Positions 50,291 through 51,478 of a DNA stretch of 64,000 nucleotides are shown piece after piece. This DNA is from Escherichia coli (GTDB lineage: Bacteria > Pseudomonadota > Gammaproteobacteria > Enterobacterales > Enterobacteriaceae): assembly GCF_003334815.1 (NCBI RefSeq), contig NZ_QOWO01000008.1, one strand, 5' to 3'. Within the stretch, counting starts at the first letter, position 1; the number at the start of each line of letters is the position of its first letter. A program made the translations under genes and the position numbers. The notes beneath the pieces are model-generated. The model did no database searches, was not told where the DNA came from, and worked only from the letters and a program-made list of their open reading frames with translations.

Positions 50291-51478
50291 ATGAAAAGAA
50301 AAGTTCTGGCAATGCTGGTCCCGGCGTTATTAGTTGCTGGCGCAGCAAATGCGGCTGAAGTCTATAATAAAGATGGTAATAAACTGGATTTGTACGGAAA
50401 AGTAGCGGGCCTGCACTACTTCTCTGATGATGCTGGCAGCGATGGCGACATGTCATATGCCCGTATCGGTTTCAAAGGTGAAACTCAGATCGCTGACCAA
50501 TTCACTGGTTATGGTCAGTGGGAATTTAACATTGGCGCAAACGGTCCTGAAAGCGACAAAGGTAATACCGCAACGCGTCTGGCATTTGCAGGTTTCGGCT
50601 TTGGTCAGAATGGTACTTTCGACTATGGTCGTAACTACGGTGTCGTATATGACGTAGAAGCTTGGACCGATATGCTGCCAGAATTTGGTGGAGATACCTA
50701 TGCTGGCGCTGACAACTTCATGAACGGTCGTGCTAACAGCGTAGCAACCTATCGTAACAATGGTTTCTTTGGTCAAGTTGATGGTCTGAACTTTGCACTC
50801 CAGTATCAGGGTAACAACGAGAAAAGCGGATTATTTGATCAAGAAGGTTCAGGTAACGGTAATGGACGTAAACTTGCTAAAGAGAACGGCGACGGTTACG
50901 GTATGTCCACTTCCTATGACTTTGACTTTGGTTTAAGTCTGGGCGCTGCTTACTCTAACTCTGACCGTACCGACAATCAGGTTCACAAAGGTACTCATAA
51001 CACTCGTTATGGAGATCGCTTCGATGCAACTGCTGGCGGTGAAACAGCAGAAGCATGGACCGTTGGTGCTAAATACGACGCTAATAACGTTTACTTAGCA
51101 GCTATGTATGCTGAAACCCGTAACATGACTGGTTACGGTGATGCTGATGCCATCGCTAACAAAACCCAAAACTTTGAAGTTGTTGCTCAGTATCAGTTCG
51201 ACTTTGGTCTGCGCCCGTCCATCGCTTACCTGCAATCTAAAGGTAAGGATTTAGGCGGTGTAAATAGTGATAACTTCGACAGCCAGGGTAATCATCACTA
51301 CACCAACAAAGATCTGGTTAAATATGTTGATATTGGTATGACCTACTACTTCAACAAAAACATGTCCACCTATGTTGATTACAAAATCAACCTGCTGGAC
51401 AACGACGACGACTTCTACAAAGAAAACGGCATCGCTACCGATGATATCGTTGCTGTGGGCTTAGTCTACCAGTTCTAA
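50291..51478 (+). CDS. yedS: OmpC/OmpF-family outer-membrane porin (YedS-like), intact
   Basis: ORF track 50261..51478; start trimmed to [21 protein letters not shown] signal peptide (395 aa); C-terminal VGLVYQF; position matches the K-12 yedS pseudogene locus. Confidence 0.9.

Follow-up and report, generated by a model that had tools for sequence, protein, structure and literature searches.

The open reading frame at positions 50291-51478 of the window (the whole stretch of E. coli DNA analysed here, 64,000 nucleotides) is very probably yedS in an intact form, the gene that corresponds in E. coli to the minor porin OmpS1 of Salmonella, with the channel, expression and RybB-response roles that we propose below. 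That yedS is intact in this strain is correct, but it is also ordinary and already known; a functional YedS in a clinical isolate was reportedly described by Warner et al. in 2013 (AAC 57:1935). The gene comprises the following elements:

50291-51478, plus strand: yedS coding sequence, 395 amino acids plus stop, intact (open reading frame call, alignments, profile matches and AlphaFold2 model)
50291-50353, plus strand: signal peptide, followed by the mature porin at 50354-51475 (alignment with OmpC)
50278-50283, plus strand: Shine-Dalgarno sequence AAGGGA, 7 nt 5' of the ATG (read from the sequence)

The frame starts with the ATG at 50291, runs for 395 codons with zero internal stops and closes with a TAA ending at 51478, so the complete porin described by the sequence-only reading is there, at the right coordinates, and alignment with the K-12, O157 and 52F4 alleles revealed neither a frameshift nor a stop in it. 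PGAP places the start at the same codon in strain 52F4, which carries an identical gene and whose product (WP_029396139.1) is 100% identical to the window porin. An alternative 405-residue reading from the ATG at 50261 was rejected, as it lacks a Shine-Dalgarno sequence and both the homologs and PGAP use 50291. The two terminal features named by the sequence-only reading were also found. The 21-residue leader, which ends in ANA before the AE of the mature sequence AEVYNK, aligns residue for residue with the signal peptide of OmpC. The C terminus reads GLVYQF, placing an aromatic residue (Phe395, the beta-signal for BAM) at the end of the YQF tripeptide. The leader is read as a cleavable Sec signal peptide, and the protein as Sec-exported.

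Profile and structure searches placed the protein among the general porins. Pfam Porin_1 (PF00267) matched over its entire length (model positions 1-337 of 337, E = 8.9e-141), and the NCBIfam OmpC subfamily model NF007841 gave 540 bits against a cut-off of 484. The best match in a PDB sequence search was the Klebsiella porin OmpK37 (6v78, 1.7e-144), and 51 PDB porins were matched with E <= 1e-11. The AlphaFold2 monomer model (pLDDT 87.2, pTM 0.85) displayed a beta-barrel fold, for which Foldseek ranked OmpK37 first (TM 0.94), followed by OmpK36, OmpC and OmpF (range TM 0.93-0.97). DSSP assigned 17 strand elements to this model; we counted E22-27 and E30-45 as a single broken strand, which gives 16 strands for the barrel. 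YedS is thus predicted to fold as a 16-stranded antiparallel beta-barrel of the OmpC/OmpF/PhoE general-porin family. Its constriction loop L3 (approximately residues 117-146, positions 50639-50728, without any strand in the model), which is predicted to fold into the lumen of the barrel, contains a conserved motif:

50678-50695, plus strand: PEFGGD motif of L3, residues 130-135 (invariant alignment columns; strand-free in the model)

Residues K37, R58, R96, R147, D127 and E131, together with P130-D135, are invariant among YedS, OmpC, OmpF, PhoE, OmpN and OmpK37. Hence, the charges of the constriction zone, a basic cluster on the barrel wall opposite the acidic residues of L3, are conserved in the alignment. 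This L3 is of the OmpN/OmpK37 type and one residue longer than that of OmpC. Among the external loops, L4, L5 and L7 are of unusual length, with 12 extra residues in L5 and up to 13 in L7 compared to OmpC, OmpF and PhoE. By family likeness, YedS would form trimers with water-filled channels, through which small hydrophilic solutes, beta-lactams among them, would diffuse non-specifically.

The assignment to the yedS locus is supported by exact synteny with K-12. The gene order dcm-yedJ-drpB-rseX-[porin]-hchA is identical in the window, K-12 and 52F4, so that the porin slot is delimited by drpB (also named yedR) and rseX on one side and hchA on the other. The window and the K-12 yedS region align collinearly with 90.7% DNA identity over 1.9 kb, and the 420 bp upstream are about 97% identical. 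The sequence-only reading was also right that this locus is a pseudogene in K-12: yedS of MG1655 (b4496) is annotated as such ('frameshifted; internal stop'), and our alignment placed a CAA to TAG change at about nucleotide 484 of the coding sequence and a -1 frameshift at about nucleotide 663. The two alleles share their locus, flanks, 5' region, signal peptide and terminator. In contrast, the window allele lacks both the TAG stop and the frameshift, and a mosaic divergence separates the two over positions 50700-51300, where identity is 68-87% per 100 nucleotides and loops L4-L7 are encoded.

The intact frame could be a matter of chance, i.e., a silent gene that is decaying into a pseudogene, like its K-12 and O157 counterparts, and that contributes nothing to the cell. 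Independent inactivations of this slot are indeed common. An intact gene occupied the slot in 11 of the 16 E. coli genomes sampled, and the 16 genomes together showed five independent inactivating events (the K-12 stop and frameshift, an O157 frameshift different from that of K-12, two IS1 insertions, and one ISVsa5 insertion with a frameshift), so that the gene is dispensable in some lineages; moreover, in the laboratory its Salmonella homolog is quiescent. Against this stand the substitution rates. Whole-gene dN/dS was 0.03-0.18, which shows that yedS is under purifying selection, with 0.01-0.10 in the strands, 0-0.16 in L3 and 0.07-0.30 in the loops. Even at dS values of up to about 1, the strands, L3 and the periplasmic turns showed next to no change. 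Likewise, the allele lineage has been kept across E. coli, E. albertii, E. whittamii and Citrobacter, the identical protein occurs on at least 1000 public contigs, and the K-12 and O157 lesions are each limited to about 6% of genomes. We therefore consider a silent relic improbable, and prefer a yedS that is maintained by selection.

Comparison of the slot across genomes revealed that drpB-rseX-[porin]-hchA accommodates at least four porin lineages between identical 5' and 3' flanks, with barrel bodies that are only 59-71% identical to the window allele. Each lineage was present in approximately 7-29% of 5,426 complete genomes, and the same slot is also occupied in other Escherichia species, Citrobacter, Klebsiella and Raoultella. 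Sliding-window identity delimited the variable part:

50400-51478, plus strand: variable 'cassette' body (sliding-window identity in 100-nt bins; protein tree)

Within this body, identity to the other allele classes falls to 35-82%, while both flanks remain at 92% or above. Across E. coli, the 100-nt bins of the 5' module keep about 92-100% identity; this module consists of rseX, the AT-rich promoter, the 5' untranslated region, the RybB site and the part of the gene that encodes the signal peptide and first beta-strand. On the terminator side, the E. coli allele classes agree at 94-95% from position 51500 onwards. Classes A and A' are OmpN/OmpC/OmpK37-like, whereas classes B and C are of the OmpF/OmpK35 type. 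E. albertii, E. whittamii and Citrobacter share the class A lineage. The window protein is 98.5% identical to that of Escherichia sp. E1V33, with dS of about 0.26 and dN of 0.008, values which indicate an old class A lineage and led us to reject a recent horizontal transfer. We tentatively suggest that the slot is a multi-allelic porin cassette, in which a fixed module is combined with interchangeable barrels, under long-term balancing or diversifying selection, and not one gene that is either whole or damaged, a reading that we consider less likely than not. No description of such a multi-allelic slot was found in the literature searched.

Diversity of this kind could also mean that the main selected role of YedS is that of a variable surface target or decoy (a phage or colicin receptor, or an antigen), with permeability being secondary. 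The external loops concentrate 62% of the variable columns, compared with 21% in strands and 0% in periplasmic turns, and the deeply divergent lineages segregate at intermediate frequencies between conserved flanks. The cited literature uses the upstream intergenic region as a host-informative marker, and OmpS1 is strongly immunogenic in Salmonella. On the other hand, dN/dS is below 1 even in the loops, no phage, colicin or antibody interaction of YedS was found in the literature searched, and the residues lining the pore show complete conservation, which speaks for selection on the channel itself. A primary role as a surface target thus appears slightly less probable still than a silent relic, and a selected diffusion channel remains our preferred reading.

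That the gene is ompC itself, either as the major osmoporin or as a copy recently duplicated from it, we regard as highly implausible, even though PGAP labels the product 'porin OmpC' and the signal peptides are nearly identical: the label arises because YedS passes NF007841, which is a 'subfamily' and not an equivalog model, identity to K-12 OmpC is only 65-66%, with OmpN (70-71%) and OmpK37 (68%) closer, and further matches lie elsewhere in every E. coli genome. YedS shows neither the micF-ompC-rcsD location nor the near-identity expected of an OmpC ortholog; ompC adjoins micF and rcsD, while YedS lies between rseX/drpB and hchA. YedS shares family, fold and constriction residues with OmpC, and differs from it in length (395 versus 367 residues) and in the neighbouring sRNA gene (rseX versus micF). 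The closest characterised paralogs are OmpN of E. coli, OmpS2 of Salmonella and OmpK37 of Klebsiella, all of them minor or quiescent porins, and OmpK37 is the best PDB match both by sequence and by fold. Given its identity to OmpN and its different locus (ompN adjoins micC and ydbK in K-12), YedS is best seen as the closest paralog of the OmpN group and not as a member of it.

A correspondence with OmpS1 is suggested by name, locus and regulation. Sources name relatives 'yedS' and 'outer membrane protein S1', a name that some annotations also give to the E. coli protein, and 'yedS (ompS1)' is written as an equation of the two by Bury-Mone 2009. A porin or its remnant occupies the same drpB-adjacent slot in Salmonella enterica subsp. 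arizonae and diarizonae, and both genes are preceded by very AT-rich DNA and linked to RybB. Within S. enterica, our drpB-anchored contig scan retrieved the decayed arizonae and diarizonae copies and no intact ompS1 of subsp. enterica. As to gene context, rseX was detected by blastn only in Escherichia and Citrobacter amalonaticus. Published work on Salmonella OmpS1 describes a porin that is quiescent under laboratory conditions, repressed by H-NS and StpA, induced by LeuO and controlled by OmpR, and a strong immunogen.

The region upstream of yedS displayed a composite organization. The drpB-yedS intergenic region (49641-50290) spans 650 bp with 30.6% GC, compared to 49.6% for the whole window. 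The sequence-only reading had described about 550 bp of AT-rich upstream sequence; the composition was correctly seen, and the length fits the distance from the end of the longest open reading frame in the drpB frame (49742), but this stretch is not one regulatory region. It contains, in order, rseX, its terminator, a CRP-type site and then an AT-rich promoter region, so that the upstream stretch belonging to the porin itself covers about 312 bp (28.2% GC). Its elements, and the terminator behind the gene, are as follows:

49889-49978, plus strand: rseX, which encodes an Hfq-binding sRNA and has an intrinsic terminator of its own (stem 49953-49973; Rfam RF01401 and terminator scan)
49993-50008, minus strand: CRP-type site TGTGATCACGCGCACA, some 285 bp 5' of the yedS ATG
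50040-50290, plus strand: AT-rich promoter and 5' untranslated region, 23.9% GC (composition)
50142-50181, plus strand: four candidate OmpR-like half-sites with 10-bp phasing, GAAACATTTT GAAATCTTTT AAATACATTT GTTACATGTA
50170-50197, plus strand: candidate sigma-70 promoter TTGTTA-16-TAAAAT (consensus scan, 9 of 12 positions matched)
50206-50211, plus strand: alternative candidate -10 element TAGAAT (by eye)
51521-51552, plus strand: intrinsic terminator with a 12-bp stem, an 8-nt loop and a T-run (terminator scan and folding)

The rseX gene scored 96.7 bits against RF01401 (gathering score 50) and is annotated at the same position in MG1655. The CRP-type site is the sole match to TGTGA-N6-GCACA in the 64-kb window, and PMC12871828 lists the corresponding position of K-12 (2033766) among in vitro CRP footprints, with yedS as the assigned gene. 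The AT-rich region is about 97% identical in K-12, O157 and ST131, although the coding bodies differ, and by analogy to Salmonella ompS1 it may be the target of H-NS-type silencing. The search for OmpR boxes gave a suggestive outcome. The candidate half-sites share the 11-mer ACATTTTGAAA with the C1 box of ompC, and the weight matrix score of 8.2 at 50142 lies inside the range of real C/F boxes (4.5-14.8), though 79 of 500 shuffles of the region scored equally high, so that these boxes are not statistically distinguishable from AT-rich background. Similarly, a consensus scan of the region upstream of yedS found promoter-like matches in a number not above shuffle expectation. Meanwhile, the strong terminator noted downstream of the gene was borne out by folding (dG -21.5 kcal/mol, z = -7.15, with 0 of 200 shuffles folding as well).

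We also searched the start of the gene for sRNA pairing. These tests were seed-restricted; folding of full-length sRNA-mRNA duplexes was uninformative, with even the positive controls being weak. One site emerged:

50294-50311, plus strand: predicted RybB seed-pairing site at codons 2-7, AAAAGAAAAGUUCUGGCA (seed duplex calculation)

The duplex of RybB nucleotides 1-16 with yedS reached -17.2 kcal/mol (z = -4.2, 0 of 300 shuffles, with both positive and negative controls working), which is stronger than the duplex computed at the same position of ompN (-14.4). In line with this, the K-12 yedS transcript decreases 2.5-fold upon sigma-E induction (Bury-Mone 2009), and Salmonella ompS mRNA, which undergoes RybB-dependent decay, is an experimental RybB target. 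For MicC and RseX, the seed-restricted pairing with yedS was no different from that of shuffles. Control of yedS by MicF was reportedly also described by Warner in 2013. No MicF site was found in the yedS initiation region, where MicF nucleotides 1-33 gave -7.7 kcal/mol and z = +0.84 against z = -5.26 for the ompF control; direct pairing of MicF at the start of yedS, lacking complementarity, is therefore not supported, though MicF may act on yedS indirectly.

The claim that an intact yedS changes the permeability repertoire relative to K-12 presupposes that the gene is expressed. We infer that expression would be low or only conditional. The promoter region is extremely AT-rich, like that of Salmonella ompS1, where H-NS acts as a silencer and LeuO lifts the silencing, and CRP and OmpR may provide additional input. 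Under envelope stress, sigma-E-dependent RybB would pair with codons 2-7 and shut off the yedS mRNA. With conditional expression and such a shut-off, the share of YedS in permeability would matter mainly in cells that have lost or repressed OmpC and OmpF.

Like the majority of wild E. coli, this strain has retained an intact minor porin gene that K-12 has lost. YedS becomes relevant only upon loss of OmpC and OmpF, as in resistance to carbapenems or cephalosporins; papers that cite Warner 2013 assign YedS a function in carbapenem susceptibility. In resistance genomics, the automated label "porin OmpC" can mislead porin-loss calls. Furthermore, functionally different porin types occupy the slot in different lineages, so that "yedS present" does not denote one phenotype. 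If the slot is indeed a cassette maintained by selection, it would provide a compact natural system in which diversity of surface loops, possibly driven by phage, colicin or immune pressures, is coupled to a fixed regulatory and sRNA-targeting module.

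The yedS slot of this strain holds an intact porin gene, with the following features around it.

47139-48557 (-), dcm
48624-49319 (-), yedJ
49359-49640 (-), drpB/yedR
49889-49978 (+), rseX, Hfq-binding sRNA gene (Rfam 96.7 bits, gathering score 50), likewise annotated in MG1655
49953-49973, terminator of rseX itself
49993-50008, TGTGA-N6-GCACA match just downstream of rseX
50170-50197, or -10 at 50206-50211, candidate promoter (consensus matches only)
50278-50283 (+), Shine-Dalgarno AAGGGA
50291-51478 (+), porin ORF
51521-51552, terminator: 12-bp GC-rich hairpin, then a T-run
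52071-52922 (+), hchA

This gene order, with hprS/hprR listed after hchA, is exactly that of the K-12 yedS neighbourhood. The ORF spans 1,188 nt, with an ATG start, 395 codons, a TAA stop and no internal stop. The start at 50291 is preferred because of the Shine-Dalgarno sequence, the canonical leader and the PGAP start of the identical gene in the calf isolate 52F4; a 405-aa version from an in-frame ATG at 50261 was disfavoured. The 21-residue leader, followed by AEVYNK, aligns with the OmpC signal peptide, and the protein ends in VYQF, with a final Phe. The terminator folds at -21.5 kcal/mol (z = -7.15), equalled in 0 of 200 shuffles. Since ORF, leader, terminator and AT-rich upstream DNA were all found, every element of the sequence-only reading (complete 395-aa ORF, signal peptide, C-terminal aromatic residue, strong terminator) is real. 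That observation is confirmed, and its interpretation as an intact OmpC-family porin where K-12 has a pseudogene is supported.

MG1655 yedS (b4496) is indeed annotated as a pseudogene, flagged by PGAP as 'frameshifted; internal stop', and in the alignment a CAA codon near CDS nt 484 has become TAG, with a -1 frameshift near nt 663. The O157 strain AR-0430 has a separate -1 frameshift at about nt 608 in the alignment. Neither the K-12 nor the O157 lesions occur in the window gene, which matches that of 52F4 exactly; alignment against K-12, O157 and 52F4 uncovered no hidden frameshift or stop. At least 1,000 public contigs carry the identical protein. We sampled 16 E. coli genomes along the similarity ranking: in 11 the slot gene is intact, and in five it was lost independently, through the K-12 stop plus frameshift, the O157 frameshift, IS1 (two cases) and ISVsa5 plus frameshift. 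Of 5,426 complete genomes, 357 contain the exact K-12 stop context and 298 that of the O157 frameshift. The pseudogene state is thus specific to certain lineages, and commonly the gene is intact. The porins split by IS1 (two genomes) and ISVsa5 belong to clinical or animal isolates (L036, F11; L041, DETEC-S792; L039, KSC64). In Salmonella enterica subsp. diarizonae and arizonae (L028, L029, ~4500-5330), the drpB-adjacent slot holds only porin fragments, the arizonae copy being broken into short ORFs.

We compared the window allele with 13 other class A alleles, the lineage to which it belongs, from E. coli, three other Escherichia species and Citrobacter (dS up to about 1).

Nei-Gojobori dN/dS by region
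Whole gene: 0.03-0.18
Strands: 0.01-0.10
L3: 0-0.16
External loops: 0.07-0.30

The share of variable alignment columns is 62% in the external loops, 21% in the strands and 0% in the periplasmic turns. Judged from these alignments, the low dN/dS and the pattern of variation are characteristic of a functional outer-membrane protein.

The match to Pfam Porin_1 covers the whole model (E = 8.9e-141), and the protein passes the NCBIfam OmpC 'subfamily' model (540 bits, cut-off 484) while falling under the OmpF and PhoE equivalog cut-offs. Among solved structures, Klebsiella OmpK37 ranks first (6v78, E = 1.7e-144), ahead of Omp36, OmpK36 and OmpC, with OmpF and PhoE next. Identity is 70-71% to OmpN, 68% to OmpK37, 65-66% to OmpC and 61% to OmpF and PhoE. 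An AlphaFold2 model from a 71-sequence alignment (mean pLDDT 87.2, pTM 0.85) predicts a beta-barrel porin fold, with target-normalised Foldseek TM of 0.93-0.97 to OmpK37, OmpK36, OmpC and OmpF. DSSP assigns the model 17 strand elements, which we read as 16 predicted barrel strands, and leaves the L3 segment strand-free; only the signal peptide and the L4, L5 and L7 loop tips have low confidence. All residues of the family's electrostatic constriction are invariant in the alignment, both on the barrel wall (K37, R58, R96, R147) and on L3 (D127, E131, P130-EFGGD-135). L3 exceeds that of OmpC by one residue, a feature shared with OmpN and OmpK37. The surplus over OmpC (395 versus 367 aa) sits in the external loops L4, L5 and L7.

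An intact yedS/OmpS1-type porin gene is ordinary and already known. Papers citing Warner et al. 2013 credit that study with a functional YedS in a carbapenem-resistant clinical E. coli, and the DNA between yedR and yedS has served as a marker of host source. The RefSeq name of the window protein, 'porin OmpC', is misleading.

The upstream DNA described by the sequence-only reading is AT-rich (49641-50290, 650 bp, 30.6% GC; window average 49.6%), but it is not a single regulatory region, since rseX and its terminator lie inside. The porin's own upstream is therefore only ~312 bp (28.2% GC; final 250 bp 23.9%). The segment from rseX to the ATG is ~97% identical in K-12, O157 and ST131. The rseX-yedS arrangement has already been described in the literature; after micF-ompC and micC-ompN, it is a third case of an sRNA gene adjoining a porin gene. 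The TGTGA-N6-GCACA match is the sole one in the 64-kb window, and the homologous K-12 position is catalogued as a CRP footprint seen in vitro, with yedS as its assigned gene (PMC12871828). Four 10-bp-phased OmpR-like half-sites lie at 50142-50181, one with an 11-mer of the ompC C1 box; their score is in the range of real sites, a level that shuffling this AT-rich sequence also reaches in 79 of 500 trials.

We infer how yedS may be regulated, a picture partly tested by sRNA pairing energies. The K-12 'yedS (ompS1)' transcript is 2.5-fold lower on sigma-E induction, as ompN, ompC, ompF and phoE fall (PMC2731931). Salmonella needs RybB for the decay of ompS mRNA during the envelope-stress response (PMC1804206), and its quiescent ompS1 gene is kept down by H-NS/StpA, with LeuO lifting the repression (PMC4264507).

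sRNA-target duplex energies, restricted to the seed and compared with shuffled targets (kcal/mol; z; equally good shuffles)
RybB nt 1-16 with yedS +4 to +21 (predicted): -17.2; -4.2; 0/300
RybB nt 1-16 with ompN, same position: -14.4; -2.6; 4/300
MicC 1-30 with ompC (positive control): -22.8; -4.7; 0/300
MicF 1-33 with ompF (positive control): -27.1; -5.3; 0/300
MicF 1-33 with yedS: -7.7; +0.84; 243/300

Under the same seed restriction, neither RybB with three unrelated genes nor MicC and RseX with yedS gave a pairing signal.

Other features were recorded in the window. The porin-hchA spacer (51479-52070, 592 bp, 43% GC) contains short minus-strand ORFs, called 'hypothetical protein' by PGAP in some strains; the window has a 78-aa GTG ORF at 51688-51924 (-). 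A whole-window Rfam scan placed DsrA at 41467-41553 (-, 102.5 bits) and a borderline ES036/CssrF at 19846-19887 (+, 38.1 versus 37.6 bits). Beside tRNA-Asn, an inverse-autotransporter adhesin gene (61098-63023, +; IatC family match), presumably yeeJ (~2,358 aa in K-12), appears disrupted in this strain because its ORF stops at 641 aa directly against an IS3-family transposase ORF (63028-63837, -).

Variation at the yedS slot goes well beyond an intact or a broken gene. The protein tree divides the slot's occupants into four classes, whose mutual distances equal those among OmpC, OmpF and PhoE. We probed the variable core of each in 5,426 complete E. coli genomes, of which each class accounts for roughly 7-29%.

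Classes of yedS-slot porin
A: window, K-12, O157, E. albertii, E. whittamii, Citrobacter; 392-397 aa; ~1,400 genomes, 82 at >=99% to the window allele
A': ER01-35; 387 aa; 71% identical to window; ~380 genomes
B: E24377A, O145, ST131; 357-371 aa; ~60% identical; ~1,250 genomes
C: XB2; 352 aa; 59% identical; ~1,560 genomes

Class A is of OmpK37/OmpN/OmpC type, and classes B and C have their best PDB relatives among OmpK35/OmpF-type porins. Between 49700 and ~50399, which takes in rseX, promoter, UTR, predicted RybB site, signal peptide and first strand, most 100-nt bins of the other E. coli alleles match the window at 92-100% (one bin at 86%). Within the CDS, classes A', B and C drop to 35-82%, and from 51500 on all alleles are back at 94-95%. 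In all, at least four porin lineages occupy the slot (window 50400-51478; loci L004, L013, L035, L037, L038 and L040 of other genomes).

Many E. coli alleles are farther from the window protein than are those of Escherichia sp. E1V33 (98.5% identity), E. whittamii (95.7%) and E. albertii (94.4%). Because dS to the E1V33 allele is 0.26 (dN 0.008) despite the 98.5% protein identity, the sequence comparison indicates that the window allele is an old, conserved trans-species lineage and not a recent transfer. We found no description of this multi-class structure in the part of the yedS literature that we searched. Only the slot's cassette-like allelic structure might repay more work.
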